DNA of 19,879 nucleotides from IMG/VR virus record IMGVR_UViG_3300025099_000200, positions 1 through 19,879 of that record. One strand, given 5' to 3'. The notes under the pieces were generated by a model. The model saw only the letters and a program-made list of their open reading frames with translations. It did no database searches and was not told the origin of the DNA. Made by a program: the position numbers and the translations under genes. This stretch comes from a virus. Position 1 is the stretch's first letter; every line of letters starts with the position of its first letter. This document shows positions 1 through 16,618 of this stretch, piece after piece.

Positions 1-444
1 GTTACATATAAAGAGGGTGTGTATAGCAATACTGCAATGAGGCTAGGTTTAAAAAATGAACCTACAGAAGCCCATTTAAGTAACATGGAGTTACTATCAG
101 AAAAAGTATTCGAACCCCTTAGAGTGCACGTAAACGGCCCTATAAAGATCAATTCGTTCTATCGAGGACCTGAATTGAATAAAGCGATCGGAGGATCGAG
201 TAAATCACAACATTGTAACGGCCAAGCGATGGATATTGACGATACTTATGGCTACATGAGTAACGCTGATATGTACGAGTATATAAAGAAAAACTTATCG
301 TTCGATCAAATGATATGGGAATTCGGAACGGATTCTAACCCAGACTGGGTACATGTAAGTTACGTAAATGAAGAGGCTAACAGAAATAGATGTTTGCTAG
401 CTTATAAAGATGAAAATAATAAAACAAAATACAAAACTATATAA
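1..444 (+). CDS. Peptidase M15 (VanY / D-Ala-D-Ala carboxypeptidase-like) cell-wall hydrolase, probable endolysin. The 5' end is probably cut by the window edge.
   Basis: The frame is open from base 1 (the track starts at GTG 19). Zn-ligand layout SQHCNGQAMDID (H-x6-D) followed by DWVHVS, preceded by INSFYRGPELN. This is the SxHxxGxAxD ... H pattern of M15 peptidases. Confidence 0.85.
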   Translation, partial: VTYKEGVYSNTAMRLGLKNEPTEAHLSNMELLSEKVFEPLRVHVNGPIKINSFYRGPELNKAIGGSSKSQHCNGQAMDIDDTYGYMSNADMYEYIKKNLSFDQMIWEFGTDSNPDWVHVSYVNEEANRNRCLLAYKDENNKTKYKTI

Positions 445-445
445 G

Positions 446-916
446 ATGGCATACAAAATGGACCCCACCAAAAAGAAAAATAAAAATGGTGGAATAAACA
501 AAATAGTAAAAGGAATAGCAGAAGCAGGTAAACATTTATTGATTCCTGGCTATTCAATTATCAAAGGAGCTAATAAAACACTTACAAAGTTAAAGCCCAA
601 ACCTGGTATATTACCTAGTATACAGGCATACAAACAGTCACAAGTGGGTGTAACCCTTACTAAAACCTTAACTTCTAAGCCAAAGGCAAAAGCAGCAAAC
701 TTGGAAAGAAAGAAACCGGTTAAAAACAAAAAATATGCCAGTTCAGTTCAAGTTTCAGGAGGATCAGGTGTTCAGCCAACTGCTAAGTCTGAACTTCCAA
801 AAGGTAATACTAATATTAAACCAGTTAAGCCTAAAGTAAAAGCGGCTGAGGCTAAACCTAAAAAGGTAAAAGTCAAAATTAAACACAATAAGACTAAAAT
901 TAAAATTAAAAAATGA
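446..916 (+). CDS. Lysine/proline/alanine-rich, highly basic protein of unknown function (histone H1-like composition)
   Basis: ATG at 446 lies 1 nt after the endolysin stop (the track's 410 start overlaps it). K-rich repeats such as KPKAKAA, KPVKPKVKAAEAKPKKVKVKIK. The stop overlaps the next start (ATGA at 913-916). Confidence 0.6.
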   Translation: MAYKMDPTKKKNKNGGINKIVKGIAEAGKHLLIPGYSIIKGANKTLTKLKPKPGILPSIQAYKQSQVGVTLTKTLTSKPKAKAANLERKKPVKNKKYASSVQVSGGSGVQPTAKSELPKGNTNIKPVKPKVKAAEAKPKKVKVKIKHNKTKIKIKK

Positions 917-1266
917 AACTATGGAAAATTGTCCTTTTTGCACTTTTTGTATTTGTAGCTAGTTGCGCAGTACAAAATAAACCCAAAATAAAGATTACCC
1001 ATGTGTTAGCTATAACACAAGAAGGTGACACATTAACTATACCTATTGATGTTATAAGGCCTATTAATTATAGAATAATAAACTATAATACAACGCCAAG
1101 TTATGGGTGGTATCACGGTGGCAGAACATATCATTATGATTATAGTTATGCGCCATCAAATAGAGGAAGTAATAATAATAACAAAGGCTCAGATAAAATT
1201 GTGCCTAGAGAAGATCCCGGAGATGGAAGACCATCTGGTGAAGTTTTAATGAAGGGAAAAAAATAA
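913..1266 (+). CDS. Putative lipoprotein (signal peptide plus lipobox)
   Basis: The N-terminus MKLWKIVLFALFVFVASC has a hydrophobic core and a V-A-S-C lipobox. ATGA overlap with the upstream gene. The role (o-spanin-like lysis factor or exclusion lipoprotein) is not determinable. Confidence 0.65.
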   Translation: MKLWKIVLFALFVFVASCAVQNKPKIKITHVLAITQEGDTLTIPIDVIRPINYRIINYNTTPSYGWYHGGRTYHYDYSYAPSNRGSNNNNKGSDKIVPREDPGDGRPSGEVLMKGKK

Positions 1267-1272
1267 TATAAT

Positions 1273-1800
1273 ATGAATACAATATCGCCGGAATATAAAG
1301 AGCAGATTACAAAATATCACGCAAGCAGGCCGTGGGGTGGCGCTGTTAGAGGTTCAGGTCAGATGCTACATAAGTATCTGATATTAACTAATTCAAAATC
1401 TATATTGGATTATGGAGCCGGAAGAAGTGATTTAAAAAAAGAATTAGACTCATCTTACCCTGATCATCCTTATATAATAAATGAATACGAACCAGGTATA
1501 CCTGAGCTAGCAGAAGATCCGCCAGTAAGTGATGCAGTAGTTTCATTTGATGTAATGGAACACGTTGAACCTGATTTAGTTGATAATGTCATACAACATA
1601 TATATGATAAAACTAACTTATGGACATATCACAAGATATGTTTAAAAGCGGCAACGGGTGTATTTCCTGGTACAAAACAAAACCTACACTTAACTATAAA
1701 ACCTGGATTTTGGTGGTTAGAAAAATTTAACAAGAAGTTTGAATTTTTAGAAACCGGAATGAATTCAGGATATGTATATTTTTTAGGAGTAAAGAAATGA
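1273..1800 (+). CDS. Class I SAM-dependent methyltransferase
   Basis: Motif I ILDYGAGRS and a later acidic/hydrophobic strand VVSFDVMEHVEP, typical of Methyltransf_11/23-like enzymes. The substrate is unknown. Confidence 0.7.
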   Translation: MNTISPEYKEQITKYHASRPWGGAVRGSGQMLHKYLILTNSKSILDYGAGRSDLKKELDSSYPDHPYIINEYEPGIPELAEDPPVSDAVVSFDVMEHVEPDLVDNVIQHIYDKTNLWTYHKICLKAATGVFPGTKQNLHLTIKPGFWWLEKFNKKFEFLETGMNSGYVYFLGVKK

Positions 1801-1919
1801 AATTTTTTGATTTTAATAATAACGGAAAGTATGATTGGTGGGAGTATATATTACCTTTTGTAATAATACTTATCATTGAAATTATTGCTGAGATTGTGGC
1901 ACGATACGTGACGTTTTAG
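1797..1919 (+). CDS. Hypothetical 40-aa single-pass membrane peptide (not in the supplied track)
   Basis: ATG 1797 overlaps the methyltransferase stop (ATGA). Translation: MKFFDFNNNGKYDWWEYILPFVIILIIEIIAEIVARYVTF, with one hydrophobic helix. Its 3' end overlaps the convergent gene 1882-2688 by 38 nt. Confidence 0.3.
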   Translation: MKFFDFNNNGKYDWWEYILPFVIILIIEIIAEIVARYVTF

Positions 1920-2688
1920 AAAATTTTGGTGCAGTCTTCATTATCTTTTGACCCCTCATCCAATTAGTATACGGTACTTCATTTTCTTTCAAGTCTGAAA
2001 GTATATGCCAATTTATTAATCCCCTTCGTTGAAGAGACCTCATATATTGTTGTTCCATATCTTTATCATGAGCTGGTCTATTTAAAATATAGACTGGCAA
2101 GTGCCAACTGTGTGGATCACAATTACTAACTTTACCACGTTTATCACGCGGTCTTTTATTAATTGTTTTAGCAAAGAAGTCAAAGCCTATAAGATCAATA
2201 CTTTTATAGGTTTTTATTTTTTGTAAAAACCATACTATAGTAATAAAACCTGCACTAGGTCTATAATCATTAGTACCTTTCAAATCTTTACCAAACTTAT
2301 TCATAACCGTAATAAGTTCTTTATCAGAATACATTTGTGTGTATTCAGGAAAGTCTTTTGGTAACCTATCTTCTAATACCCAATCCTTAAGCATTAAGTT
2401 ACCTCGACTTCTATTTATTAATACTTTCGTATTTTTAAATTTGCCTGTAGCAAATTCTTCTTTAACATTGTTAAACGCTGGCGCTCTAAATTGACCGGTT
2501 ACCCATATGTCACATTTAGTGCCAAGACTTTTTTCTTGTAAAGGTGTAGCTTCAATAGCTCTTCCAAACCTTATAACAATATCATACTTATCGATAAAGT
2601 CTGAAAGATTATGATTCATAATCTCTACAGAGTTACCGATAAATATAATACGTTTATCTTTTACAAACTGTTGTATATCCTCCACCAT
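1882..2688 (-). CDS. Sialyltransferase-like glycosyltransferase (GT29/GT42-like motif layout)
   Basis: N-terminal RIIFIGNSVEIMNHNLSDFIDKYDIVIRFG resembles sialylmotif L and the CstII N-terminus. RPSAGFITIVWFLQKIKTYKSIDLIGFDF resembles motif S. It is followed by HSWH (motif III-like) and HDKDME (H-x4-E, motif VS-like). Confidence 0.55.
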   Translation of the reverse strand: MVEDIQQFVKDKRIIFIGNSVEIMNHNLSDFIDKYDIVIRFGRAIEATPLQEKSLGTKCDIWVTGQFRAPAFNNVKEEFATGKFKNTKVLINRSRGNLMLKDWVLEDRLPKDFPEYTQMYSDKELITVMNKFGKDLKGTNDYRPSAGFITIVWFLQKIKTYKSIDLIGFDFFAKTINKRPRDKRGKVSNCDPHSWHLPVYILNRPAHDKDMEQQYMRSLQRRGLINWHILSDLKENEVPYTNWMRGQKIMKTAPKFSKTSRIVPQSQQ

Positions 2689-3311
2689 TCTTCTGAAGCT
2701 TCTGCGTCTTTATAACTATCAAACCAAGGTCCGCCGTTTGTATAATGTAATGCCTTAGCACCTTCTATATTATAATAACCAACTAATGAATTATATTCTT
2801 TAGGTATTGAACCTATGTTATCTTCATTTATAAAATGAAATTCATGTAGCTGTGCTGGCGTTGCGTTATCTAAATATTCTTTTGTTAATTTATTTTTATA
2901 CCATTCATTTCTGAATATCATTAAGCTAGACCAGTTTTTCTTTGGGTAACTTTTATTAACAACACCATTCATTTTGTTAGCGTCTGCTTCATAGTCATCA
3001 TGCTTTACAACAGCTAAGTTATATTGATTTATATATTTTCTTATTTCTCTTGGATCACATTTCCATAAGAAATCATTATCACAAAACATTGCAATACCTT
3101 CGTAATTACAAAGTAATGGTACATAGAATCTAGTAAAAGAAAATTCTGTTGATTCTCCATTAACATCATCTCTGCCATAGATGCCAGCATCTTTTAACTT
3201 AGCTTTATCTAACCAAGTTATTTTAGCTTCTGGCCAATAATATTTAATTGATTGTGCGCAAACTTTTGTTGCGTCTGTATATCTTGAGTCGTGTCCTATA
3301 AATATTCTCAT
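2661..3311 (-). CDS. GT-A fold glycosyltransferase, GT8-like
   Basis: FTRFYVPLLCNYEGIAMFCDNDFLW contains the DxD-type motif (DND) in the usual GT8 context. The size and layout match the small GT8-like proteins of marine phages. Confidence 0.7.
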   Translation of the reverse strand: MRIFIGHDSRYTDATKVCAQSIKYYWPEAKITWLDKAKLKDAGIYGRDDVNGESTEFSFTRFYVPLLCNYEGIAMFCDNDFLWKCDPREIRKYINQYNLAVVKHDDYEADANKMNGVVNKSYPKKNWSSLMIFRNEWYKNKLTKEYLDNATPAQLHEFHFINEDNIGSIPKEYNSLVGYYNIEGAKALHYTNGGPWFDSYKDAEASEEWWRIYNSL

Positions 3312-3313
3312 AA

Positions 3314-3658
3314 CTATGCTTTTTTACCTGATGATCTTCTGTTAATATCATCATGATTAAACTCTGCCCAGTACAATTCAAAAGCAACACCATCTTCTAA
3401 TCCTTCAAACTGATGAAACTTTCCTGGCTTTACCATAGTAAAATCACCAGCTTCTAATATTGTTTCATCAACAAGACCTTGATCATCTTGCCAAACTCTA
3501 ACGAGCATTTTACCGGATTCAACAAAAAATCCGTTCCATTTAAATTTGTGTTCATGTTCTGAACATTTAAATCCTTTATTATATTCTATTCTATGAAATT
3601 CTAATACACCGTTCTTGTGTATCATTTCTGTTTTACCCCAAATTTTTCCTGCTTTCAT
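3314..3658 (-). CDS. Small single-domain cupin protein (mannose-6-phosphate-isomerase-type cupin)
   Basis: KIWGKTEMI...EFHRIEYNKGFKCSEHEHKFKWNGFFVESG...GKFHQFE matches the cupin His-rich motif 1 and motif 2 pattern. The start overlaps the upstream stop (TAATG). Confidence 0.7.
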   Translation of the reverse strand: MKAGKIWGKTEMIHKNGVLEFHRIEYNKGFKCSEHEHKFKWNGFFVESGKMLVRVWQDDQGLVDETILEAGDFTMVKPGKFHQFEGLEDGVAFELYWAEFNHDDINRRSSGKKA

Positions 3659-4470
3659 TATTTACTTTGTTTAAAATATGGTTTAGACCAGTTAGACTTA
3701 TTTGATTTAACGTGTTGAACTTTTTTTGTAACTCTCACTTTAGTATAAGGCGCCCAGTTATACCATTTGCCTCTTCTATTTTGTGATACAGGTGTTATTT
3801 TAAAGTTCTTTAATGTTTGATCTGGTTTATTTTTGAAGTGTATACTTAATAATATTCTAGGTCCTATAGTATCAACTTTATGATATTGATAAGACGGAAT
3901 ATATAACATATCTCCAGGCTCTAAAACAAATTCATCTATTATTGTTTTAGGTTTATCAGGAGTAAACTCTTCATATATAGTCCATTTGGTTTTACCTTCA
4001 GTATGAAATAAAAAGTTTTCAGTTGCATCTGCATGTGCAGGAAACGACTTTGATTCAGCATTTGGAGAAGCATAAACATTTACTTGTCCGTGCCCAAAGA
4101 ATTTTTCAAATTCAAAACAAACTTTAACTAAGTTTTCTTTTTCGTATTCAGCAAAAGGTATTACAAATGTTTTATTTTGTTTTTTCCAAAAATCAAATAT
4201 TTGTTCTTTACTTAACATAGGTAACTTTAATTTACCTTTAAGTATTTTATCTAAGCACCATCTACCATCTTTGGTTTTATCGGTACCCTCTATTATTTGT
4301 AAACTTTTTACATTCGGGTATCTGTTTAAATAATTATTTAAATCATCCCACGTAAATAAATTCTTAAATTTATTTCTTCTTATTACTAAATGTTTTTTAC
4401 CCCAGTAATTTTGAAAAAAGTTTTTTACACTAATAGGCTCTAGTATATTTTCTAATGTTATTCTATCCAT
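3658..4470 (-). CDS. JmjC / cupin_4 family 2-oxoglutarate-Fe(II) oxygenase (ribosomal-oxygenase-like)
   Basis: HxD...H facial triad: FPAHADATENF (H-A-D) and the distal YQYHKV. The N-terminal FFQNYWGKKHLVI is typical of cupin_4/JmjC proteins. Confidence 0.7.
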   Translation of the reverse strand: MDRITLENILEPISVKNFFQNYWGKKHLVIRRNKFKNLFTWDDLNNYLNRYPNVKSLQIIEGTDKTKDGRWCLDKILKGKLKLPMLSKEQIFDFWKKQNKTFVIPFAEYEKENLVKVCFEFEKFFGHGQVNVYASPNAESKSFPAHADATENFLFHTEGKTKWTIYEEFTPDKPKTIIDEFVLEPGDMLYIPSYQYHKVDTIGPRILLSIHFKNKPDQTLKNFKITPVSQNRRGKWYNWAPYTKVRVTKKVQHVKSNKSNWSKPYFKQSK

Positions 4471-6184
4471 CGCAAGCTAAACAATTTTCGTCCATTGCTT
4501 GATCGGCAATATCACCTCTCAATACAGACTCGGTTCTCATATAATATAATGTTTTAATTCCTTTTTTCCAAGCAGCCATATGCACTTTATTAATCCACTT
4601 TGGCGTTGCTGTTGAAGGAAAGGCTAAATTCAAACTAACTGACTGGTCAACATATTGTTGTCTTATACCAGCTTGATTAACTAATTCTAATTGATTAATT
4701 TCTTTGAAAGTTCTGAATATTTCTTTGACGGGTATGTCGTGAGGTCCATGAGTAACACTGTCTAATTGTTTTAAACCTTGTATAGACCCTCCGTCCTTTA
4801 GTATCTTCGACCATATTCTTTCGTTATCTATTTTATTTTTTCGTAATATTTTTTTAAGTGTTGGGTTTTTACGAATGAAAGTACCTTTCGCACTTTGCTC
4901 TGTGAATACATTAGCTGCCCACGGTTCAATACCTGGGCTAACATTTCCACTAAGCTTAGAGTTACTGACAGTAGGAGCAATAGCGCGTAGGTGGGTATTA
5001 CGTAAACCAGTACCGACACACCAAAGAGGTTCTCCAAAAATTTCAGCCATAGCTCGTGAAGCTCTTTCAGATTCGATTTTAATTTGACTAAATATTTTTC
5101 TTGTTTCATATTGTGATAATAATCCTTCAAATGGTAAACCTTTTTCCTGTAAATATGTATGCCAGCCTAGCACACCTAATCCTAAAGCTCTACCTTTTTC
5201 AGCAGATCTAACAGAATTATGGAAGCCAACTTTACCTTTTGATTTCTGTATAAATTCTTCTAACACGCCATCAAGAAACCATGTGGCGTCATATATTAAA
5301 TTGGTTCCTTTCCATTCATCATACTTGGCTAAGTTTAATGATGATAAACAACAAACAAAAGAATGAGACTCATCAGTATGTAATGTAATTTCACTACATA
5401 TATTTGTCATATGTACTTTTAATCCGTGTTTTTTGTAAGCATCTGGGTTATTCTTGTTTGTATTTCCCTTAAATAAGATATAAGGTTCTCCAGTTGCTTT
5501 ACGTTTTTGTAATAGCTTACCCCATATCCTCCTCGCATCTTGATCTCCAGCATCAAGTCTTCGCATGAACTTGTCGCCGACCACAGCGCACTGGTGTAGG
5601 TTGAGCGATTGACGATTAACGTCTCCTTTAGGTTCTCGTATTTCCAACCACTCTTCAAAATCGGGGTGGTCAATATTAATATTAACGCTTGCAGCTCCTC
5701 TTCGGACAGATCCTTGGTTCGTTGCGAGTATAGTGCTATCGTAGATTTTACAAAAAGGCACAGTTCCATCAGATGTTCCATTTCCAGTTATGTTTGCACC
5801 GGCGGGTCTAATCATATTCAATCCAATGCCAACTCCACCGCCGTGCTTTGCGAGTAACATCATCTCTAAATTTTTCATACCAATGTCATAGATGCTGTCC
5901 GCAACATCAATTCCAAAGCATGATATAGGCAATCCTCGATCTGTACCAGTATTAGATAGCACAGGAGATGCCAAACACAGCCAACCTTTCCATATATATT
6001 CAAAAAAAGTTTCGGCTAGTTCTGGACGCTTTAAACGCTTCGCTACAGTTTCAGCAACACGCATATAAGCATCGCGAGGAGACTCAGTATTAATTAAATA
6101 ACCTCCAGCAATTGTTTTCTTATATACATCTGTATCACCCCAGCTAGGATAATCAATTCCCTTTTTCCAGTTGTTGTTCCACAT
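4463..6184 (-). CDS. nrdA: Ribonucleoside-diphosphate reductase alpha subunit, short form without ATP-cone
   Basis: Catalytic NICSEITL (N-x-C-x-E), CCLSSLNL, a C-terminal redox pair CLACDG, and many conserved class I RNR blocks. There is no VxKRDG-type ATP-cone at the N-terminus. Confidence 0.95.
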   Translation of the reverse strand: MWNNNWKKGIDYPSWGDTDVYKKTIAGGYLINTESPRDAYMRVAETVAKRLKRPELAETFFEYIWKGWLCLASPVLSNTGTDRGLPISCFGIDVADSIYDIGMKNLEMMLLAKHGGGVGIGLNMIRPAGANITGNGTSDGTVPFCKIYDSTILATNQGSVRRGAASVNINIDHPDFEEWLEIREPKGDVNRQSLNLHQCAVVGDKFMRRLDAGDQDARRIWGKLLQKRKATGEPYILFKGNTNKNNPDAYKKHGLKVHMTNICSEITLHTDESHSFVCCLSSLNLAKYDEWKGTNLIYDATWFLDGVLEEFIQKSKGKVGFHNSVRSAEKGRALGLGVLGWHTYLQEKGLPFEGLLSQYETRKIFSQIKIESERASRAMAEIFGEPLWCVGTGLRNTHLRAIAPTVSNSKLSGNVSPGIEPWAANVFTEQSAKGTFIRKNPTLKKILRKNKIDNERIWSKILKDGGSIQGLKQLDSVTHGPHDIPVKEIFRTFKEINQLELVNQAGIRQQYVDQSVSLNLAFPSTATPKWINKVHMAAWKKGIKTLYYMRTESVLRGDIADQAMDENCLACDG

Positions 6185-6377
6185 TTTTCTTTTCTAATTT
6201 TTGTAATTCTTTAACTAATTCTTTCCATTTGTCCTCTCCAATATGTAATTGAAAAGCGGTTAATGTACCCTGAGCTAAGCTTGTAACTTGTTCTAAGTCT
6301 TTAAGTGTTCTTGTTAGAGCACCACCTAAAACTTCAACTTGCTGCTGTAATTGTTTAACATTTTTTTGTATTCCCAT
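6153..6377 (-). CDS. Hypothetical coiled-coil protein (74 aa)
   Basis: ATG start. Heptad-like, Q/E/K/L-rich sequence. Sits between nrdB and nrdA on the same strand and overlaps the nrdA start by 32 nt. Confidence 0.5.
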   Translation of the reverse strand: MGIQKNVKQLQQQVEVLGGALTRTLKDLEQVTSLAQGTLTAFQLHIGEDKWKELVKELQKLEKKNVEQQLEKGN

Positions 6378-6378
6378 A

Positions 6379-6630
6379 TTAAGTTATTAAATGTTTTATC
6401 CACGCAAATAAACCATTAAGGTTTAATGCTACTAAGTTCCATTGCTTTCTTGATCCAGTCTGTACCATCACACAAATAAAACCTATTATATACAACCAAG
6501 GTTCTAATGTCCATTGTGCGGCAACTAAAAGACCGGCACCCATATATCCAATACGGGTAGCCATTCTTTCTAATGGTCCTAGTTGTCTTCTTCTTTCAAC
6601 AAGAAACCTTTTATATTTATTTATTACCAT
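6379..6630 (-). CDS. Small integral membrane protein (2-3 TM helices)
   Basis: Hydrophobic stretches IGYMGAGLLVAAQW, WLYIIGFICVMV and LVALNLNGLFAWI. The start overlaps the nrdB stop (ATGGTAA). Confidence 0.6.
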   Translation of the reverse strand: MVINKYKRFLVERRRQLGPLERMATRIGYMGAGLLVAAQWTLEPWLYIIGFICVMVQTGSRKQWNLVALNLNGLFAWIKHLIT

Positions 6631-7634
6631 ATATCTTCAAAATCTTCTCCTTCATTCGCTTTGCTATAGTCAGTCGGCCTAACAGCAAAGAAATCAGTGT
6701 GAGTGTGACCCCCAGTAAGATGATCGAACCAAGCCATTTTTTCAATTGATTTTTCGTCATAAAAAGTAAAATCCCATTGTTTATATTTCTTTGATGTATA
6801 ACCTAACTCAGCTAGCTTATCGCCAACTCTTTTCTTAATAAAATGTTTAAGATCGTATTGCGTTATACCTTCTATATCACCCATTTCAAATATCTTACTA
6901 ATGTAAGTCATTTCAGCATTGTGCATTGTTAAAGCCGCTTCAAATATATGTGGTTCACATTCAGCTTTTAATCCTGGTACTTGCGAACACATGTGTCTAA
7001 ATAATTGACAACCCATTTTACTATGCAATGATTCGTCTCTTACAGACCATTTCATTTGTTGGCCAATACCTTTAAGTAAATTACGTAACTGAAAACTGTA
7101 AAGCACGGCAAAAGCAGAGTATAAAGAAACTCCTTCTGCGAAAGCTGAAAAAGTAGCCAATGACTTTCCGATACCAACGGGATCGTTGCCATCATATGCA
7201 ACAAGATTATCAAAGCGAGCAGCCGTAGCTGGCTCATGAAGAAAAGCTTCATAGTCTTCGAGTCCAAGTGTTTCATTTAAATAACTGTAAGCTACAGCGT
7301 GTATTGTTTCTTGTGAGCCGAACATCATAGCCATTTGCTGTATCTCATGTTTAGGAAACCATGATACGACTTTCTGTGTCCAGTAATCTGATACTGCACA
7401 TTCTGTTTGAGCAAAGCCTAATAGTATATTACCAACTAAATTCTTTTCTTCAGCTGTTAACTTTTCGTTCCAGTCTTTAACATCACCGCTCATTGGTATT
7501 TCAGTATGTAACCAAAATGCTTGAGCTTGTTTTAACCAGCCCTCAGTATAATACTCAGGATATTCAAAAGGTTTATAAGGTATTCTTTCTGTAAATAAAG
7601 GTGCTTTACTCATATTAATTATTTGTTTTTCCAT
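6624..7634 (-). CDS. nrdB: Ribonucleoside-diphosphate reductase beta subunit
   Basis: Di-metal and radical-site motifs: QETIHAVAY (E-x2-H-x3-Y), FAEGVSLYSAF and VRDESLHS (E-x2-H). Confidence 0.95.
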   Translation of the reverse strand: MEKQIINMSKAPLFTERIPYKPFEYPEYYTEGWLKQAQAFWLHTEIPMSGDVKDWNEKLTAEEKNLVGNILLGFAQTECAVSDYWTQKVVSWFPKHEIQQMAMMFGSQETIHAVAYSYLNETLGLEDYEAFLHEPATAARFDNLVAYDGNDPVGIGKSLATFSAFAEGVSLYSAFAVLYSFQLRNLLKGIGQQMKWSVRDESLHSKMGCQLFRHMCSQVPGLKAECEPHIFEAALTMHNAEMTYISKIFEMGDIEGITQYDLKHFIKKRVGDKLAELGYTSKKYKQWDFTFYDEKSIEKMAWFDHLTGGHTHTDFFAVRPTDYSKANEGEDFEDIW

Positions 7635-7780
7635 TCTATAGCAAGATCAATAAATGGTATATAGAACACCACTTGTGACCAGATAGGTCCTTCATAAGTT
7701 CTAACCCCGAATAATAATCCAGGATATAAACCTATAGCCATTGACCAATCATCTTCCTTGCCCTCGATATTGTTTGACAT
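7619..7780 (-). CDS. Hypothetical 53-aa protein (below the track length cut-off)
   Basis: My translation: MSNNIEGKEDDWSMAIGLYPGLLFGVRTYEGPIWSQVVFYIPFIDLAIEWKNK. The stop overlaps the nrdB start region. It fills an otherwise unexplained gap in a very compact array. Confidence 0.4.
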   Translation of the reverse strand: MSNNIEGKEDDWSMAIGLYPGLLFGVRTYEGPIWSQVVFYIPFIDLAIEWKNK

Positions 7781-7883
7781 AATTTTTACTTGATTTTAAG
7801 TTTGACGTTTTAGATTTCGCATGAACTCCAGGACGACGAACTTTTGATTTAATTTTATATTGATATATATTTACTTTAGCCAT
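7749..7883 (-). CDS. Hypothetical 44-aa very basic peptide
   Basis: My translation: MAKVNIYQYKIKSKVRRPGVHAKSKTSNLKSSKNYVKQYRGQGR. The start overlaps the upstream small ORF's stop (ATGGCTAA). Confidence 0.35.
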   Translation of the reverse strand: MAKVNIYQYKIKSKVRRPGVHAKSKTSNLKSSKNYVKQYRGQGR

Positions 7884-8049
7884 AACATTTTATTCCGTAT
7901 TTATTATGTATAAACTCTAAATCTTTCCATCTTAAATAACCTCGTGTAGCTAAAGACCATCTGATGAACGTATCAATCTTACGTTCTTTATATTTACGCC
8001 TAGCTAAATGCTTGGCGGATTCTCTAGTATTTCTATTACGCGGTCGCAT
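7876..8049 (-). CDS. Hypothetical 57-aa basic protein
   Basis: My translation: MRPRNRNTRESAKHLARRKYKERKIDTFIRWSLATRGYLRWKDLEFIHNKYGIKCYG. It overlaps the 3' end of the nuclease gene by 46 nt in another frame. Confidence 0.35.
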   Translation of the reverse strand: MRPRNRNTRESAKHLARRKYKERKIDTFIRWSLATRGYLRWKDLEFIHNKYGIKCYG

Positions 8050-8459
8050 TCTTTTTGATTTTGTGGTTTAAATAAAGTATAGTTTGGAAACTGTTGAGTT
8101 ACCAATCTTTTAAATAATTTCCAACGCATTGGAAAAGATTCGTTAGGTCTACCTTTTGTTTCTATAATAAAGTCTTTACCAATAAAATCTGGTGTATACT
8201 TTATAGGTAATACTCTTTTACTACCTCTGTTTTTGAATAAGCCTTTACTGTTGGCTTGTCTTTCATAAGCTTCATTATCAAAATGAAAACCATTTAATAA
8301 CACAAATGTTTCACCTTCGTATTTAGCTTTTATGTTTGCTTTTTTCAAAGCCATATACATATATTTTTCTAAGCCAGATGCAAAGGTTATTCCATCGTAT
8401 TCAACTTTTTTAGAAACTACAGGTCCTCTTTTCTTTTTTCTATAGTACTTTTTCTTCAT
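8004..8459 (-). CDS. PD-(D/E)XK nuclease, T7 endonuclease I / DUF1064-like (Holliday-junction resolvase or host-DNA nuclease)
   Basis: FASGLEKYMYMAL...KYEGE followed by YTPDFIGKDFIIETKG (PD ... E-x-K) parallels T7 gp3 (SGLE...YTPDF...VETKG). The first ATG is at 8459; the track start at 8468 is TTG. Confidence 0.65.
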   Translation of the reverse strand: MKKKYYRKKKRGPVVSKKVEYDGITFASGLEKYMYMALKKANIKAKYEGETFVLLNGFHFDNEAYERQANSKGLFKNRGSKRVLPIKYTPDFIGKDFIIETKGRPNESFPMRWKLFKRLVTQQFPNYTLFKPQNQKECDRVIEILENPPSI

Positions 8460-9291
8460 TGACTTCAATATCTTTTACAAATGTACCATTGATCATTTTG
8501 CCTTTTCTATTGCATATTTCTTTAAATGCAGCAGATATACATTCTTCTATAGTAAAGCCTTCGAGATAAGCTAAGTTCGTTAACACAACTACAATGTCGC
8601 CAACAGCATCTTTAATTTCATCATTATCTTTATTAAGCAATGCTTTAGCTAATTCTCCAGCTTCTTCTTGAAGCTTAACATATTGTGTGTGACTATTACC
8701 TTTTTCGTATATACCTCTTTCAGCAGCCCAGTTTCTTATTAAATCAAACTCTGTTAGAGTTGTTAATTCAGTTGTGCCAGCTTTATATTTATTTAAAGGC
8801 ATTTTCTTTATGTTAGTCTTCATGGTTTCTATTAAGCTATTTAAACTGTTTATTTCACTAAATGCTTCCCATAAAGCTTTATTATATACATAGCTTCTAT
8901 CGCTATTGTATCTAGATATAAGGGCATTATTAGAAATCCAGTCTGCTAATTTAGCACATAATAATATTTTTCCAAATTCAGTTTTCCATGTTAGCCCGAG
9001 TTGATCGTGCAATCTGCCTCGTAATTTTGATACAGGCACTGGAAAAGTTGTGGTTTGTTCGGTTACGTTTATTTTCATTTTAAATAAATTTTTATAAAGT
9101 TTAGTGTCTCTCCTATATCCGAAAGACTTTTGAAGTTCTATCTCTCTGTCTGATATATAATCTATATCGTCCGATTGATCAAGAACTTCATATTCACTAG
9201 GTTTATAACCCTGCGTTTGCGTAACCCTTTTATAAAGATCACGTGTAACGCCGATTTTTTTACCCGGAATGTGATATAAATAGTATGTCAT
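8440..9291 (-). CDS. Fusion protein: N-terminal GIY-YIG-superfamily (T5orf172/MUG113-like) domain plus C-terminal MazG-like NTP pyrophosphohydrolase domain
   Basis: N-terminus: YYLYHIPGKKIGVTRDLYKRV...YEVL...DREIELQKSFGY. C-terminus: KLQEEAGELAKALL...EIKDAVGDIVVVLTNLA...RKGKMINGTFVK (EExxE ... D metal-binding helices of MazG-type enzymes). The start overlaps the TS-like stop (TAATG). Confidence 0.7.
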   Translation of the reverse strand: MTYYLYHIPGKKIGVTRDLYKRVTQTQGYKPSEYEVLDQSDDIDYISDREIELQKSFGYRRDTKLYKNLFKMKINVTEQTTTFPVPVSKLRGRLHDQLGLTWKTEFGKILLCAKLADWISNNALISRYNSDRSYVYNKALWEAFSEINSLNSLIETMKTNIKKMPLNKYKAGTTELTTLTEFDLIRNWAAERGIYEKGNSHTQYVKLQEEAGELAKALLNKDNDEIKDAVGDIVVVLTNLAYLEGFTIEECISAAFKEICNRKGKMINGTFVKDIEVNEEKVL

Positions 9292-10145
9292 TACTTACCA
9301 ACGTTTAATTTTGCCGGTATTGCCGACATAGGATTATAATTAATTAACTCGAAATTTTTCTTTTTTGGTATTTCTAAACCAGGGTTACTTCTATGGCCAC
9401 CTTTAAATACAATACCATCGCCGTGTATTTTTAATTTAGGTAACTCTATTGGCTTATGTGGGTTAAAAGGATTTCTATATACATAAGTTTGCGCAGCATC
9501 AAGATGATTTAAATATAAATGACAATCACCAAGTTGGCCTATTAATTTACCTGGTTTGTATACTGTATTAACACAAAGCAATTCAAGTAATACACCGTAC
9601 ATTGCAATATCATAAGGCAAACCTAAGAATACATCTGCAGATCTTTGAACCCATATTAAATCCATTTTATCACCATTTATATTGACTTGTATAGCATAAT
9701 GGCATGGAGGTAAAACCATATTCTTTAATTTATCTGGTCTCCACGCACTTAGTATATGTCTTCTTGACATTGGATCAATCATTATACCGTATATTAAATT
9801 CATAAGCTGGTCATAACCATTAAAGTCACGCCATTGTGCTCCGTACACTGGGCCAAGCTTACCATCTTTACGACCTGATCTTTTATAATCATCATCCCAA
9901 TAATGAACGCCATTTTCATGTAAATATCCCATATCAGTTCTACCATTTAATATCCATAATAGTTCTGATATAACATGATTAAAATACATTTTCTTTCCAA
10001 CTAACATTGGAAAACCTAATGACATATCGTGCTCAATCTGTCTACCGAATAGATGCTTAGTACCTACACCTGTTCTGTCTTTCTTTTCAGGAGCATTCAA
10101 TAAGTTTGCTACTAAAGCTCTATACTGTTGTTCTATATTTGTCAT
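9291..10145 (-). CDS. Thymidylate synthase (ThyA) family pyrimidine-nucleotide C5 (hydroxy)methylase. It carries Asp at the dUMP-specificity Asn position, so it is predicted to be dCMP-directed.
   Basis: DRTGVGT, SRRHILSAW, catalytic LPPCH, QRSADVFLGLPYDIAMY, GDCHLY. It aligns colinearly with E. coli ThyA (QRSCDVFLGLPFNIASY), but N177 is D. The ATG at 10145 (MTNIEQQYR) is preferred over the extended track start. Confidence 0.9.
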   Translation of the reverse strand: MTNIEQQYRALVANLLNAPEKKDRTGVGTKHLFGRQIEHDMSLGFPMLVGKKMYFNHVISELLWILNGRTDMGYLHENGVHYWDDDYKRSGRKDGKLGPVYGAQWRDFNGYDQLMNLIYGIMIDPMSRRHILSAWRPDKLKNMVLPPCHYAIQVNINGDKMDLIWVQRSADVFLGLPYDIAMYGVLLELLCVNTVYKPGKLIGQLGDCHLYLNHLDAAQTYVYRNPFNPHKPIELPKLKIHGDGIVFKGGHRSNPGLEIPKKKNFELINYNPMSAIPAKLNVGK

Positions 10146-10401
10146 AATAATATTTACAAAATTTATAATATTCTGGCCATAACGAATGCTTGTCATAAAT
10201 AGACGGAGCAAAGTTACATTTTTCTCCTCGTTTATATGGCCCTATGTTTATACATATTTTCCATTGTCCGTCTAATCCTGTTGACCAAGGTGATATTCTT
10301 ATATTGTTTCTTGTACAAAACAATTTCCATTCTTGTTCTTCAGGCGTAGCCACATATGCTGGCAACGGATTTGGTTTTCTTTTTTTATATAAACTTTTCA
10401 T
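10120..10401 (-). CDS. Hypothetical protein (93 aa, Cys/Trp/Tyr-rich)
   Basis: ATG at 10401 overlaps the primase-helicase stop (TAATG); the track start at 10410 is TTG. It overlaps the TS-like start by 26 nt. No motif was recognised. Confidence 0.55.
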   Translation of the reverse strand: MKSLYKKRKPNPLPAYVATPEEQEWKLFCTRNNIRISPWSTGLDGQWKICINIGPYKRGEKCNFAPSIYDKHSLWPEYYKFCKYYYDKYRTTV

Positions 10402-12128
10402 TAATCCCAAGGCATAGCCTCATCTTCAGTTACTGATTCATAATGAGGAATAAAGCTACCTGATTTAGGTTCCCATTTAAATATTGCTTCAGCACCATTC
10501 TCGCCAAGATTTTGAAACTTAACTTTTAAAACTTTTGCTTTAACAGTTTTAGCATCGTAATCTCTATGAACTAATAAGCCATGATAAGATGCATCATACC
10601 ATTCACCACCACCTTTAATGTTATACATAGTTGGCTCTTCAATTTTACCATCTTGTGTTTTATACATTTTAGTTGGGTGAGCTACAATAAATACTAAGAC
10701 ATCAAACTTCTTTGCAAATGTTTCAATCTTAGTTAGATATTCCATTGTATATCTGTTTACATCTTCAGTCTTACAATCTACGTCTCTGATCTTATTAAAA
10801 GGATCTATAACTAGACATTTAATACCTTTACGCTTAACTAACTCAGCACCTTTACGCAATACTGTTTCAAGAGTATAGCGTTCCATATCAATAAAGAAAA
10901 AGTTATCATTGACGTGCTCAGCTATTTGTTTCCATTTACTTGTGCCAATATCAGATTTACGTGGCATATCTTGCCACACCTTTCTCATTAGCTTATGAGC
11001 GTGTAAATACGTTGGCGCGTTTTCAGGTGATGCAAATGCTGTTTTCCATTGGTAGTTATTATTATAACCAACTACCATCTGATCAACGAAATCTGACTTT
11101 CCGCTAGATGGTATGCCAGTAACAGTGATAAACTGGCCAGTGTAAGTAGAAAAAATATTATCAAAATTAGGTAACCCAACTTGATAACCTTTCTTAAAAC
11201 CATTTTGTACAAAGTCTGTAACTTCATGTTCTATATCTTTAAAAGTTGTTACATTCTCAAGTGGTACAGGTCTACATTCTGTTATTGCATTTGCTAGATC
11301 TTCTTTACCGTACTTGATTAAATAATCGTTAGCATCTTTACAATCAATAAAGTTTACTAAGTAACATACTTCCGCACCTAGTCTTCTTATTAATTCATTT
11401 TGTAATGCAACGCCAGCTTCGTCTTGATCAACTGCTAATATTATTTTTTCTTTGTCTGTGAAATAATCTATACAGTTATCAAGATAATCTAAATTGTTAT
11501 GATTAAGTGTAGCTCCATTAGGAACAGACACTACGTTTTTAATACCAGCTTCATGAAACGCTAACGCATCCATTTCACCTTCAACAATAACACATGTATC
11601 ATAACCTACTATGCTATTAATATTATAAAAGACTTTCTCGGCACCTTTATATAATTTAAAATGCTTTCGTCCGTCTCTGTATTTAATATTGATAAGCTCA
11701 TCACCTATCATATAGTTGAACTTAATTGTATTTTCAACCTTGCCAGTTTGTGGCATGAATTCTGGGCCCACTGATACATTACAATCTTCTAATGTACTCT
11801 GCGATATACCTCTTGTTTTAAACCATTCAATTACTTTATCACTAGCACTTACTGGCTTATGTGTTTTAGTAGTAAACTCTGGTTTAGTATATACTTTATC
11901 ACTGCCGCCTTTGCGTTGATAAGTATGTAATTGAAATGTTGAGTCACAGTTGTGGCAAGTACCCAAACCACGATCCCAATCATAACTAGCACACTTTGCT
12001 TTTTTATTCTCAGGTTTACGGTTATGTGAACACAGGGGACAAATCCCCTGCGTTGCACCAACCTTTAAATCGTGATGGTTAAACTGGTCGATTAAAAATC
12101 CGTTAATCTCCGTGTTGTTTACTTGCAT
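10401..12128 (-). CDS. Bifunctional DNA primase-helicase (T7 gp4-like)
   Basis: N-terminal Zn finger CPLCS...CHNC. TOPRIM motifs VIVEGEMDALAF and AVDQDEAG. DnaB/RecA-type Walker A GIPSSGKSDF and Walker B CLVIDPF. Confidence 0.92.
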   Translation of the reverse strand: MQVNNTEINGFLIDQFNHHDLKVGATQGICPLCSHNRKPENKKAKCASYDWDRGLGTCHNCDSTFQLHTYQRKGGSDKVYTKPEFTTKTHKPVSASDKVIEWFKTRGISQSTLEDCNVSVGPEFMPQTGKVENTIKFNYMIGDELINIKYRDGRKHFKLYKGAEKVFYNINSIVGYDTCVIVEGEMDALAFHEAGIKNVVSVPNGATLNHNNLDYLDNCIDYFTDKEKIILAVDQDEAGVALQNELIRRLGAEVCYLVNFIDCKDANDYLIKYGKEDLANAITECRPVPLENVTTFKDIEHEVTDFVQNGFKKGYQVGLPNFDNIFSTYTGQFITVTGIPSSGKSDFVDQMVVGYNNNYQWKTAFASPENAPTYLHAHKLMRKVWQDMPRKSDIGTSKWKQIAEHVNDNFFFIDMERYTLETVLRKGAELVKRKGIKCLVIDPFNKIRDVDCKTEDVNRYTMEYLTKIETFAKKFDVLVFIVAHPTKMYKTQDGKIEEPTMYNIKGGGEWYDASYHGLLVHRDYDAKTVKAKVLKVKFQNLGENGAEAIFKWEPKSGSFIPHYESVTEDEAMPWD

Positions 12129-12138
12129 CGATTTTTAA

Positions 12139-12450
12139 TTAAAATGGTAAATCATCAACTGGTTGTTGAACTTGTTGAGGCATAGCAGCCGGAGCATTAT
12201 CTCTAGGTGCTACTTCAACGTTGTCGCCGTTCGTCCAAACTACTTTTACATTACCAAGATAAACTTTCTCAGTCTTAGCATCTCTTTCGTCTTTTGATTG
12301 TTGAACAATCACAGGACCTTGATTACCAAACTGATCAACTTCATCGTTGATAGTAATTGTAATTGGTAAGTATTTACCTTTCTTACCGTCGATAATTTTA
12401 TCTTTCGGTATTTTTGTTAAGTCAATACTCGTTGCTATTATACTTGCCAT
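12139..12450 (-). CDS. ssb: Single-stranded DNA-binding protein
   Basis: Small OB-fold-sized protein with a Pro/Gln-rich linker and the acidic C-terminal tip DDLPF characteristic of SSB partner-binding tails. It sits between the primase-helicase and the recombination genes. Confidence 0.75.
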   Translation of the reverse strand: MASIIATSIDLTKIPKDKIIDGKKGKYLPITITINDEVDQFGNQGPVIVQQSKDERDAKTEKVYLGNVKVVWTNGDNVEVAPRDNAPAAMPQQVQQPVDDLPF

Positions 12451-12451
12451 A

Positions 12452-12670
12452 TTATGCTGTTGTTTTAAATAAATTATTGAACATAGTTCTTAGCTCAGTA
12501 GTTCCTACTGTAGCTCCCGTAGCTTGTAATCTACGTCTAAAGTTGTCAGCTTTTTTACTGTACAAATGTAATCCGTCTGCTGATTTTGAATTAGCATAGA
12601 ATTCTGTTGTAGGAAATGTCATTCCTGTCATTGCACATTCTTTTGTTGTAACTTTTTTTCTTCTTCCCAT
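12452..12670 (-). CDS. Hypothetical basic protein (72 aa)
   Basis: ATG start, with the stop 1 nt before the ssb start. No motif was recognised. Confidence 0.55.
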   Translation of the reverse strand: MGRRKKVTTKECAMTGMTFPTTEFYANSKSADGLHLYSKKADNFRRRLQATGATVGTTELRTMFNNLFKTTA

Positions 12671-12677
12671 AATTAAA

Positions 12678-13409
12678 TTAAAGTGTTAAATTAATAAAAA
12701 ATTGTGATGGATCAAATCCATCGGTTTTGTAGAATAAATCGTAAGCTTCTACGGCTCTCTTTACCTTGTCTTTACCTGATTCATAAAATTCAGGTGAACA
12801 ATCCATAACTGCTATTTGATGAGTTTCTTTGTCAATTACTATAAAACAAAATTCATATCCAAATAGAGTACTGTATATATAAGCTTGGCTGTCGTAATTA
12901 AAACGGTTAGCAGACCACTTGAAAGAGTTTATATCTTTGGTTGTTTTCAAATCAATTATAAGCTTCTCGTCATGGTTTACAATATCAGCTTTACCCTTCC
13001 ACATCGCTCCTTCAAGCTCTGCTACACCAGGCTTCTCATACTCAACATCAATGCCCTTGATCAATCCTCTGCATACATCATTCTCCATTATCTTTTGCGT
13101 CATCAATTCTATTTGGTCAACTTCTTTTTGTAATAAGCAAAGTTCACCGCCAGACATTTCTTTATAAGCTTTTGTATTTCTTGTACTGCTTTCGATAACC
13201 TTATATTTCTTTAACTTGTTAGGTTCGAGTATCGCAGTATGGAAATATCCACCTACTAAAAATGCTGGACTTGGTTTGGATTGTTGTCCAAGTGCTAAAG
13301 GATTATTAAGCAAAGTTCTTATATCACTATTGCTAAGAAATTGTTTACCAAAATCTCCATAATAGTTTTCATCTTCTCTAAGCTTTTCAATAATCGCTTC
13401 TTTGTTCAT
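12678..13409 (-). CDS. PD-(D/E)XK recombination exonuclease (RecE/Exo VIII C-terminal, DUF3799-like)
   Basis: GKADIV ... LIIDLKT (D ... D-x-K) followed by YDSQAYIY (QxxxY). Adjacent to the Erf annealase. Confidence 0.75.
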   Translation of the reverse strand: MNKEAIIEKLREDENYYGDFGKQFLSNSDIRTLLNNPLALGQQSKPSPAFLVGGYFHTAILEPNKLKKYKVIESSTRNTKAYKEMSGGELCLLQKEVDQIELMTQKIMENDVCRGLIKGIDVEYEKPGVAELEGAMWKGKADIVNHDEKLIIDLKTTKDINSFKWSANRFNYDSQAYIYSTLFGYEFCFIVIDKETHQIAVMDCSPEFYESGKDKVKRAVEAYDLFYKTDGFDPSQFFINLTL

Positions 13410-13435
13410 ATTATCCGAATTAAATCGTATTTAGT
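13408..13435 (-). promoter_or_regulatory. Copy 4 of bipartite motif ACTAAAYACGA-N8-GGATAAT-AT
   Basis: - strand: ACTAAATACGA TTTAATTC GGATAATAT. The last AT is the first two bases of the exonuclease ATG. The upstream half lies in the last codons of erf. Confidence 0.4.
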
Positions 13436-13965: not shown

Positions 13966-14019
13966 AATAATATAATTACATATTTTAAATTAAACTTAAA
14001 CGGTTTTGAGCACCGTAAC

Positions 14020-15422: not shown

Positions 15423-15478
15423 TAGCTTATTACTAATTATTATTTATTAGCTTTCGTCGCTCTTCGCTTTCTTAGCTT
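15422..15478. repeat. Three direct TTAGCTT heptamers at exact 25-nt spacing in the intergenic region upstream of the HTH-protein/sigma-factor genes
   Basis: TTAGCTT occurs at 15422-15428, 15447-15453 and 15472-15478 (AAGCTAA on the coding strand). This is one of the few real intergenic gaps (63 nt) in the leftward array. The first copy abuts the ATG at 15422. Confidence 0.45.
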
Positions 15479-15485
15479 CTTTATT

Positions 15486-16460: not shown

Positions 16461-16480
16461 ATCTTTTATTATTTAATCTG

Positions 16481-16618
16481 TTATAGTGTTTGTCTAATAA
16501 GAGGTTTGCTACCTCCTCTGAGATCATGTTTTCGCTGTATAGTTGCCAAATAAGTTTGCTCATCTTTAATTTGTTTTTGTATTATATTAAAATATCTATC
16601 TCCTAATGAATCATTCAT
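16481..16618 (-). CDS. Hypothetical 45-aa protein
   Basis: ATG at 16618 overlaps the ligase stop by 8 nt (ATGAATGA). The track's longer form starts at TTG 16702, inside the ligase gene. Confidence 0.35.
   Translation of the reverse strand: MNDSLGDRYFNIIQKQIKDEQTYLATIQRKHDLRGGSKPLIRQTL

Follow-up and report, generated by a model that had tools for sequence, protein, structure and literature searches.

The window analysed here, positions 1 to 19,879 of IMG/VR virus record IMGVR_UViG_3300025099_000200, carries four minus-strand genes directly downstream of the ribonucleotide reductase (RNR) gene nrdA. They encode, in order, a JmjC-type 2-oxoglutarate (2OG) oxygenase, a small cupin, a glycosyltransferase (GT) resembling family GT8 and a second one resembling the GT29 sialyltransferases, and they converge on a plus-strand methyltransferase gene and a membrane open reading frame (ORF) of 40 amino acids (Table 1). 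[quoted passage not shown] Judged by its sequence, the window comes from a phage of Bacteroidota type; the nearest cultured relative is Cellulophaga phage phi10:1, with a 43% identical primase-helicase. As far as sequence matches reach, the lineage is known solely from metagenomes, and a megablast search with the island against GenBank phages gave zero nucleotide matches.

An earlier note on this DNA had named the genes and their junctions, and both hold. Pfam, PHROG, fold and motif evidence agree with the identities, and an ORF scan reproduces the overlaps of 8 nt (nrdA/JmjC), 1 nt (JmjC/cupin) and 28 nt (GT8-like/GT29-like), the 2-nt gap from the cupin to the GT8-like gene and the convergent overlap at 1882-1919 between the GT29-like gene and the methyltransferase/40-aa ORF side. 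Linkage of the cassette to the nucleotide-metabolism operon was also correctly recognized, the nrdA-JmjC junction being kept in relatives. As for a single transcription unit, the gene overlaps fit it, and promoter and terminator scans of the window stayed at chance level and do not bear it out (Bacteroidota-type promoters lie outside the scan's coverage).

Relatives were recruited from IMG/VR by searches with the GT29-like and JmjC proteins (n = 45 loci) and the window genes were mapped onto them by tblastn, with counts covering the loci that span the region. The order nrdA-JmjC-cupin-GT8-like-GT29-like is identical in every region-covering locus (about 45), the overlapping junctions are preserved along with it, and amino acid identity of the cassette to the window ranges from 56 to 100%. 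Ratios of nonsynonymous to synonymous substitution rates (dN/dS) show that all four minus-strand genes are real and under purifying selection, the cupin being more constrained than nrdA (Table 1). Because order and junctions recur in about 45 loci under such selection, the four genes are a conserved core cassette of the lineage and not the accessory island they had been taken for; only the methyltransferase is variable. A comparative search for the full five-gene set, which had been advised, accordingly splits: the four-gene order recurs in about 45 loci, the methyltransferase in only about 8 of 45, all closest relatives.

Table 1. Features of the locus with supporting evidence, amino acid identity to relatives (tblastn map of related loci) and dN/dS (computed against four relatives unless stated)
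Feature	Position	Strand	Evidence	Identity	dN/dS
Membrane ORF, 40 aa	1797-1919	+	Protein-level conservation in 11 relatives		
S-adenosylmethionine (SAM)-dependent methyltransferase, 175 aa	1273-1800	+	phrog_24759 'methyltransferase', 2e-15	70-97% where present	0.17 (one relative only)
GT29-fold sialyltransferase-like glycosyltransferase, 268 aa	1882-2688	-	PF00777, 22.4 bits; predicted fold	61-99%	0.08-0.32
GT8-like nucleotide-sugar glycosyltransferase, 216 aa	2661-3311	-	phrog_28018 (unknown function), 3.3e-46; alignment motifs	61-97%	0.14-0.30
Metal-binding cupin, 114 aa	3314-3658	-	PF07883 (Cupin_2), 31.2 bits	89-100%	0.03-0.06
JmjC-type Fe(II)/2OG oxygenase, 270 aa	3658-4470	-	PF08007 (JmjC_2), 61.6 bits	56-99%	0.10-0.39
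nrdA, ribonucleotide reductase large subunit (context)	4463-6184	-	PF02867, 1.3e-90	80-98%	0.07-0.10
Thymidylate synthase (TS) homologue (context)	9291-10211	-	TIGR03284, 214 bits		

A GT29 fold, a cupin and Kdo genes

The protein of the last cassette gene was resolved by fold comparison alone, PDB sequence and profile searches having given nothing useful. Its AlphaFold (AF2) model (predicted local distance difference test, pLDDT, 86; predicted template modelling score, pTM, 0.87) was compared with the PDB using Foldseek, and matches 1 to 30 are all GT29 sialyltransferases (ST6GalNAc2, ST3Gal-I, ST8SiaIII and ST6Gal1; E 3.6e-9 to 1e-4, template modelling (TM) score about 0.45-0.52), followed by the flagellin ulosonic-acid transferase Maf as the next-best fold match. 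Its PF00777 score lies just under the 23-bit gathering cut-off; a 58%-identical relative in locus L048 scores 25.1 bits, and many members of the family, which comprises more than 160 clusters, all marine metagenomic, carry a precomputed match to the same profile. Across 29 aligned members the blocks VGNS (G18-N19-S20), RPSAGF..GFDFF (R143-P-S-A-G-F148...G168-F-D-F-F172), PHSWH (P192-H-S-W-H196) and AHDxxxE (A206-H207...E212) are invariant, and we read them from the alignment as sialylmotifs L, S, III and VS, the last including the His-x4-Glu. As modelled, then, the last gene has a modified GT-A fold of the GT29 sialyltransferase type with four sialylmotifs, to which a basic, disordered C-terminal tail is added (isoelectric point, pI, about 9.65).

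To our knowledge, every characterised GT29 enzyme uses a CMP-activated ulosonic acid, and the GT29-fold enzyme is the sole cassette transferase able to use a CMP-sugar. The plant GT29 protein RCKT1 is needed for the Kdo residue of rhamnogalacturonan II (RG-II) and has been proposed to be a CMP-Kdo transferase (PMC11288761), and bacterial GT29 sequences without a transmembrane segment exist (PMC5811610). In several relatives of the window (L043, L048/49 and L061-63), the stretch from the cupin to the GT8-like gene is interrupted by KdsA and KdsB-like genes. The inserted KdsA (Kdo-8-phosphate synthase) reaches 309 bits against NF003543 (cut-off 242), and the best matches of the inserted cytidylyltransferase are all Kdo cytidylyltransferase families, below their cut-offs. 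Given the GT29 fold together with KdsA and KdsB inside the cassette of relatives, we infer that the GT29-like enzyme uses a CMP-activated ulosonic acid donor, and we propose that it functions as a CMP-Kdo-dependent Kdo transferase. Some of these relatives have an extra gene between KdsA and the GT8-like gene, encoding a 59-aa membrane protein (L048 4028-4207) or a 143-aa cysteine-rich protein with a CxxCxxCC start (L061 11501-11932).

The cupin leads to the same pathway by its neighbours. Its family numbers more than 1,674 clusters (at 90% identity), and none of the best 120 falls below 78% identity to the window protein. No other gene of the cassette is as conserved, and with at least 76% identity to that protein across unrelated phages it ranks with the best-conserved phage proteins of this data set. 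Residues H35, H37, H82, N42 and C32 do not vary. PDB sequence and profile searches gave nothing useful; the model is a single-barrel cupin fold (pLDDT 85), with minimal phosphomannose isomerase, D-lyxose isomerase, the CapF cupin domain and cysteine dioxygenase among its structural matches. We sampled the neighbourhoods (6 kb) of 80 of the at least 579 IMG/VR loci that carry the cupin, and found KdsA and/or KdsB in about 37 of the 80 and the JmjC gene in 29. At least four additional lineages of phages have the cupin adjoining KdsA and/or KdsB. Among the arrangements are cupin-Vut_1-KdsA-KdsB, two cupin genes together with KdsA, KdsB and, by a weak Pfam match, an aldolase-like gene, and a T7-like podovirus in which cupin, KdsB and KdsA stand as a bare trio next to the RNA polymerase. 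It also occurs in ten contigs of metagenome-assembled genomes (MAGs), six with adjoining KdsA and KdsB; contigs assigned to SAR324 and Marinimicrobia are among those that carry it.

Two features of these neighbourhoods stand apart. Vut_1 (YhhQ-like, of the queuosine-precursor transporter family) directly follows the cupin at L064/L065 6370-7026 and L066 6542-6979, a family otherwise linked to 7-deazaguanine metabolism. Oxygenases near the phage cupin, KdsA and KdsB genes belong to three families, JmjC_2, 2OG-FeII_Oxy_3 and 2OG-FeII_Oxy_5.

One 74-kb bacterial contig (L156) holds KdsB, the cupin, KdsA and KdsC in a row, with KdsB at 273 bits (curated NCBIfam cut-off 193), KdsA at 354 (242) and KdsC at 141 against TIGR01670 (107), flanked by plainly cellular genes (L,D-transpeptidase, EamA, TauE and aldo-keto reductase). 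No KdsD is present in that row, where only the arabinose-5-phosphate isomerase step of the Kdo pathway is missing. Because the row amounts to the whole Kdo pathway minus this step, and because metal-dependent cupins serve as aldose-ketose isomerases (phosphomannose, phosphoglucose and lyxose isomerases are established examples), we propose that the cupin may be a non-orthologous arabinose-5-phosphate isomerase, a proposal to which we give about an even chance. For this step we know of SIS-domain enzymes only; the SIS fold is absent from the single cupin barrel, and a full-text literature search returned no description of a cupin-type isomerase of such kind. Just upstream of the same operon (L156 5762-7099) lies a gene for a Gig2-like protein (PF07350, 430 bits), presumably of a 2OG-oxygenase-like family (DUF1479); if so, this would be another oxygenase adjoining Kdo genes.

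With the GT29 fold, the KdsA and KdsB genes inserted in sister phages and the linkage of the cupin to Kdo genes all pointing one way, we consider it probable that the cassette chemistry is Kdo-centred.

Partner enzymes and neighbouring genes

In the GT8-like protein, D78, D80, H189, G193 and P195 are invariant and G194 and W196 nearly so among 11 homologues (down to 31% identity), which read by eye as a DxD motif and a C-terminal H..GGPW motif. Neither Pfam nor NCBIfam profiles, Glyco_transf_8 included, match it at E <= 0.1 or 0.01, and a PDB sequence search gave chance-level matches only. By its motifs the enzyme is probably a retaining hexosyltransferase. Among cultured phages, its homologues are housed in glycan gene clusters. 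That of Synechococcus phage S-SCSM2R lies in a cluster with KdsB, KdsA and a 2OG oxygenase; that of Pelagibacter phage Mosig lies downstream of RNR with two methyltransferases and a sulfotransferase; Caulobacter phage CcrColossus has one with sialyltransferase-like and GT9 genes, between tail and lysis genes; and Stenotrophomonas phage DLP6 has a methyltransferase, GT8-like, GT29-like trio in that order. In an unrelated phage lineage (L050) the GT8-like gene directly follows the cupin within a cluster of four GT25 genes and an epimerase gene. The DLP6 gene after the GT8-like gene is a true GT29-like homologue (family hidden Markov model (HMM) E 3.6e-31). The corresponding genes (about 260 aa) of Mosig, S-SCSM2R and the L050 lineage were tried as remote GT29-like members and dropped, the family HMM being silent at E <= 1.

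The JmjC protein scores far above the PF08007 cut-off of 22 bits, with further Pfam matches to Cupin_8, Cupin_2 and JmjC, and a PDB sequence search finds MINA53 (E 7.8e-12), NO66, YxbC and FIH as its nearest solved relatives. The metal triad H146, D148 and H197 is invariant in 15 family members and aligns with the HYD...H of MINA53. The match spans residues 19-222 of the 442 in MINA53, whose dimerisation and winged-helix domains have no counterpart here; the window protein consists of the catalytic domain and a very basic, aromatic-rich C-terminal tail (pI 9.65). All 135 clusters of the family fall within this phage group. Its Pfam matches include no TET/JBP family, and its PDB relatives are JmjC protein hydroxylases, as MINA53, NO66, FIH and YcfD are known to be (PMC2938197). 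Descent shared with the hydroxylases KdoO and LpxO was considered and rejected, neither being among the PDB sequence matches; a functional analogy is possible. Among the rows covered, the MetaGPA supplementary tables (PMC8670742) gave a single, uninformative Cupin_4 row. Four JmjC homologues (P0269, P0280, P0292 and P0335; 313-342 aa) have an N-terminal extension of about 55 aa (GLGDTF...IKWLII...CGC...), which may represent either a small upstream gene that has become fused or a module of membrane or metal-binding type.

The methyltransferase bears a GxGxG-type motif (ILDYGAGRS); it has zero Pfam matches, and PDB sequence and profile searches gave nothing useful. In DLP6 its homologue (29% identity, E 1e-6) sits directly upstream of the GT8-like and GT29-like genes, and homologues lie near the cupin in 11 of the 23 viral loci where the cupin stands without the other cassette genes. 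Because of this trio and these loci, we place the gene, a variable accessory and probably a sugar O-methyltransferase, in the same functional network. A 175-aa gene adjoining the cupin in L054, a possible homologue of the window methyltransferase, matches PF13578.

The genes might also be read not as one pathway at all but as independent host-manipulating genes packed at the end of an operon, with the JmjC enzyme acting on a ribosomal protein, the cupin being a redox or metabolic enzyme and the GTs serving unrelated targets. Phage genomes are tightly packed as a rule, marine phages have many 2OG oxygenases and cupins that stand alone, and the cupin occurs in many lineages without other cassette genes. 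Order and junctions are invariant across relatives, however, the insertion of KdsA and KdsB falls precisely between the cupin and the GTs, and three pairings (cupin plus GT8-like, GT8-like plus GT29-like, methyltransferase plus GT8-like) come back in unrelated phages, and we think unconnected genes improbable.

Gene content varies in the slot that separates the GT29-like gene from the endolysin. The 40-aa ORF occurs in 11 relatives (40 aa in ten, 47 aa in one) with conservative substitutions; its conserved N-terminus, MKFFDFNNNGKYDWWEY, is followed by one hydrophobic helix, and the N-terminal loop DFNNNGKYDWWE fits the EF-hand calcium-loop pattern. Last in the lysis-side operon, it overlaps the GT29-like gene's 3' end and encodes a membrane protein that belongs to this convergent operon and probably not to the glycosylation system. 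Positions 19-1266 (plus strand) resemble a lysis module, with an M15 peptidase (endolysin), an overlapping, very lysine-rich 168-aa protein and then a 117-aa protein with a lipobox-like FVASC signal that could be a spanin. On the other side, two small ORFs of 74 and 83 aa lie between nrdB and nrdA (6153-6630, minus strand), the latter hydrophobic and conserved among relatives.

Proposed pathway and its possible acceptors

We suggest the following order of events. The cupin would isomerise ribulose-5-phosphate to arabinose-5-phosphate, the committed first step of Kdo synthesis, sending more flux to CMP-Kdo via the host KdsA, KdsC and KdsB; in sister phages, KdsA and KdsB are phage-encoded. The GT8-like enzyme, going by its motifs, would move a hexose from a UDP-sugar onto the acceptor. 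The GT29-fold enzyme would then move Kdo from CMP-Kdo, probably onto that hexose, its fold being taken from a predicted structure and its donor from fold and gene context. Finally, the JmjC enzyme may hydroxylate the acceptor or the sugar, and the methyltransferase, where present, may O-methylate the glycan.

As acceptor we rank first, tentatively and short of an even chance, a host envelope glycoconjugate, that is, the lipopolysaccharide (LPS) core or a capsule, because all four activities have counterparts in the LPS pathway: KdsD for the isomerase, WaaI, WaaJ, WaaO and LgtC among GT8 enzymes, the Kdo transferases, and the hydroxylases of lipid A (LpxO) and of Kdo (KdoO). The envelope is also favoured because GT8-like relatives share phage clusters with sulfotransferases, methyltransferases and GT9 or GT25 enzymes, and we count for it the trio of DLP6, a phage with no ThyA-family enzyme. 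The phage would gain by remodelling its own receptor surface, blocking superinfection or the adsorption of progeny to debris.

Several points weigh against this account. The window itself has neither KdsA nor KdsB and its phage would draw on those of the host, so the CMP-Kdo donor is carried over from relatives. The cupin fold search returned about 1,000 generic cupin matches from which no function can be assigned, and in 23 of the 80 sampled cupin loci none of the other cassette genes is present (cupin alone or only with a methyltransferase). 'GT8-like' is a motif-level call backed by homologue annotation, with no profile or fold support. The kin of the JmjC protein hydroxylate proteins, and it shows no sequence homology to KdoO or LpxO. 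A pattern scan of GTDB genomes found zero cellular relatives of the GT29-like protein in an LPS locus (strict patterns). Lastly, the core position of the cassette, its translational coupling to nrdA and its place in an operon with a dCMP-specific TS and MazG suit a DNA function better than a variable island of auxiliary metabolic genes (AMGs) for the envelope.

This last point rests on the nucleotide genes upstream. The TS homologue has W80, Y94, L143, C146, H147, D169 and N177D (Escherichia coli numbering); position 177 is Asp (...GLPYDIAMY...), the same in 16 relatives, and all relatives keep this Asp. Published residue rules equate N177D with a dCMP substrate, L143D/E with a hydroxymethyl product and D169N with a 5-hydroxy product, the L143 rule being described as a correlation by its own paper (PMC13326640). 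Since N177D is present while L143 and D169 are kept, the enzyme should be dCMP-specific with 5-methyl-dCMP, not 5-hydroxymethyl-dCMP, as its predicted product, and the C5-hydroxymethylating step invoked by the earlier note finds no support in this window. In L037 (715-1356) and L061-63 (L061 3832-4473), a 213-aa T4-like dCMP hydroxymethylase fills the TS slot. A MazG-like pyrophosphatase forms the C-terminal ~100 aa of a 283-aa protein encoded at 8440-9291 (minus strand), whose N-terminal ~140 aa have no family match; the fusion is conserved in relatives, and the protein may be a dCTP-clearing enzyme of a modified-cytosine pathway.

The same sugar chemistry might be directed at the phage's own DNA, a possibility that we hold doubtful, though published work lends it credibility. 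TS would supply 5-methyl-dCMP (5-hydroxymethyl-dCMP in the relatives with the T4-like enzyme) and MazG would remove dCTP; after replication the JmjC enzyme, as a functional TET analogue, would turn 5-methylcytosine (5mC) into 5-hydroxymethylcytosine (5hmC), on which the two GTs would build a hexose-Kdo glycan. The cupin, with KdsA and KdsB in relatives, would meet the demand for CMP-Kdo, and the modified DNA would resist host nucleases. In favour are the dCMP-specific TS, with N177D in all relatives, MazG and RNR directly upstream of a cassette that is core to the lineage, the replacement of TS by the dCMP hydroxymethylase in some relatives, and the basic tails of both the JmjC and the GT29-like protein (pI ~9.65). 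In phages producing 5hmC, the genome usually has a gene for a DNA glycosyltransferase too. By our own estimate, replacing every C would need about the host's whole LPS Kdo output, which would explain phage Kdo genes. There is published precedent as well: validated phage clusters with a dioxygenase, an epimerase as sugar supply and two successive GTs glycosylate 5hmC, the first-encoded GT being GT8-like and adding secondary sugars, and one phage GT attached a sugar acid resembling Kdo to 5hmC in E. coli (bioRxiv 10.1101/2023.12.21.572611). An objection we had raised, that Kdo on DNA is without precedent, was dropped on the strength of that report (bioRxiv 10.1101/2023.12.21.572611).

Other evidence speaks against DNA. 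With TS predicted to make 5-methyl-dCMP, the JmjC enzyme would need a 5mC oxidase activity that is unprecedented for its family, which is that of the MINA53 and NO66 protein hydroxylases and not TET/JBP; we know of no JmjC enzyme, and of no GT29-fold enzyme, that acts on DNA. The JmjC gene is moreover intact, with its full triad (dN/dS ~0.5), in relatives that encode the dCMP hydroxymethylase and would make 5hmC directly, where oxidation of 5mC would be superfluous. The Kdo-adding enzyme of the published work is of GT-B fold. DLP6 keeps its trio with no ThyA-family gene anywhere in the genome, having ThyX and a dCMP deaminase instead; the cupin-KdsA-KdsB modules of other lineages have no TS homologue within 6 kb; and a dNMP kinase was not found in the window. 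The full scheme, in which a JmjC DNA hydroxylase makes 5hmC from 5mC, GT8-like and GT29-fold transferases add a hexose-Kdo glycan and a cupin isomerase feeds them, strikes us as unlikely.

Alternatively, the acceptor could be a protein. The JmjC enzyme would hydroxylate a side chain (Lys, Pro, His, Arg or Asn) of a virion or host protein, the GT8-like enzyme would add a hexose and the GT29-like enzyme would cap it with Kdo. Glycosylation of collagen hydroxylysine and of Skp1 hydroxyproline offers parallels for such hydroxyl-plus-hexose logic, and hydroxylase-plus-GT systems are established in eukaryotes and giant viruses. The close characterised relatives of the JmjC protein (MINA53, NO66, FIH and YcfD) are all protein hydroxylases, and Maf, the next-best fold match of the GT29-like protein, reportedly places ulosonic acids, Kdo included, on flagellin Ser/Thr; in CcrColossus, related GTs directly follow a tail protein gene. 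The cassette nevertheless sits in a replication and nucleotide-metabolism operon and not among late structural genes, virion proteins would on our own estimate need too little Kdo to justify a cupin, KdsA and KdsB, and no candidate target, such as a collagen-like repeat protein, was identified. We judge a protein acceptor rather unlikely.

A rough weighing of features gives near-equal posteriors for envelope, DNA and protein. The earlier hedge among DNA, host glycans and proteins stands, since present evidence does not separate the three.

Comparison with known systems

The phage DNA-glycosylation clusters (bioRxiv 10.1101/2023.12.21.572611, PMC13326640) are alike in having a TS homologue nearby, a 2OG dioxygenase, a sugar supply and two GTs, of which the first-encoded is GT8-like, and in counting Kdo-type acids among the added sugars. 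They differ in that their oxygenase is of the TET/JBP type rather than JmjC, in that the second GT here has a GT29 fold, unreported on DNA, and in that TS here is predicted to make 5-methyl-dCMP in place of 5-hydroxymethyl- or 5-hydroxy-dCMP; the present system is known from genes alone. The LPS islands of marine myophages (S-SCSM2R, PMC12801897; Mosig), whose function is likewise predicted from genes, share GT8-like homologues, nearby methyltransferases and other GTs; the S-SCSM2R island groups KdsA and KdsB with a 2OG oxygenase in one cluster (PMC12801897), and the Mosig island lies downstream of RNR. Those islands are variable and genome-specific, whereas the cassette here is a lineage core fused to nrdA. 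Among the annotated phages examined, a GT29-like gene is present only in DLP6, a JmjC gene of the window type in none, and a distant (40%) cupin match only in two Synechococcus phages. The cassette may work like the phage glycan or 'LPS' islands, and possibly like the DNA-glycosylation clusters, as a member of neither as they are defined.

The cassette offers Kdo supply and transfer as a chemistry for the marine phage genes annotated as 'LPS-like' or 'cupin / 2OG oxygenase', and the GT29-fold phage clade bears on the origin of sialyltransferases. If the acceptor is LPS, receptor remodelling would be a core and not an accessory function in a lytic phage. If it is DNA, the cassette would define a new class of hypermodification enzymes, relevant to defence evasion and to bias in virome sequencing. 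Should the full DNA scheme hold, its JmjC enzyme would be the first known to hydroxylate DNA and its GT29-fold enzyme the first to glycosylate it; the commonness of cupin, KdsA and KdsB in marine phages would then have an explanation, and DNA made acidic by Kdo would be a widespread feature of the ocean virome.

At the level of single enzymes, the GT29-like protein shares fold and sialylmotifs L, S, III and VS with known GT29 enzymes (RCKT1/MGP2, PMC11288761; bacterial sequences, PMC5811610). As with RCKT1/MGP2 (PMC11288761), its CMP-Kdo donor is inferred for a GT29 member, and like the bacterial sequences (PMC5811610) it lacks the transmembrane anchor and the conserved disulfide cysteines. 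It differs from GT29 enzymes in being phage-encoded and cytoplasmic, only 13-17% identical in structural alignments and just under the Pfam gathering score. The JmjC protein shares the JmjC_2 domain, the HxD...H triad and its best sequence matches with the ribosomal oxygenases (MINA53, NO66 and E. coli YcfD/RoxA), and departs from them in its short length of 270 aa, without dimerisation or winged-helix domains, its basic, aromatic-rich tail and its sugar-cassette setting. The cupin would take the place of KdsD in the KdsB-cupin-KdsA-KdsC operon and in phage cupin-KdsB-KdsA trios; KdsD, GutQ and KpsF are SIS-domain proteins with no sequence or fold kinship to the cupin, which has no such domain, and this would be a case of analogy, not homology. 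By comparison with all of these, what is new is a cassette of four genes in fixed architecture, a cupin-type enzyme as candidate arabinose-5-phosphate isomerase and a large phage clade of GT29-fold enzymes tied to Kdo.

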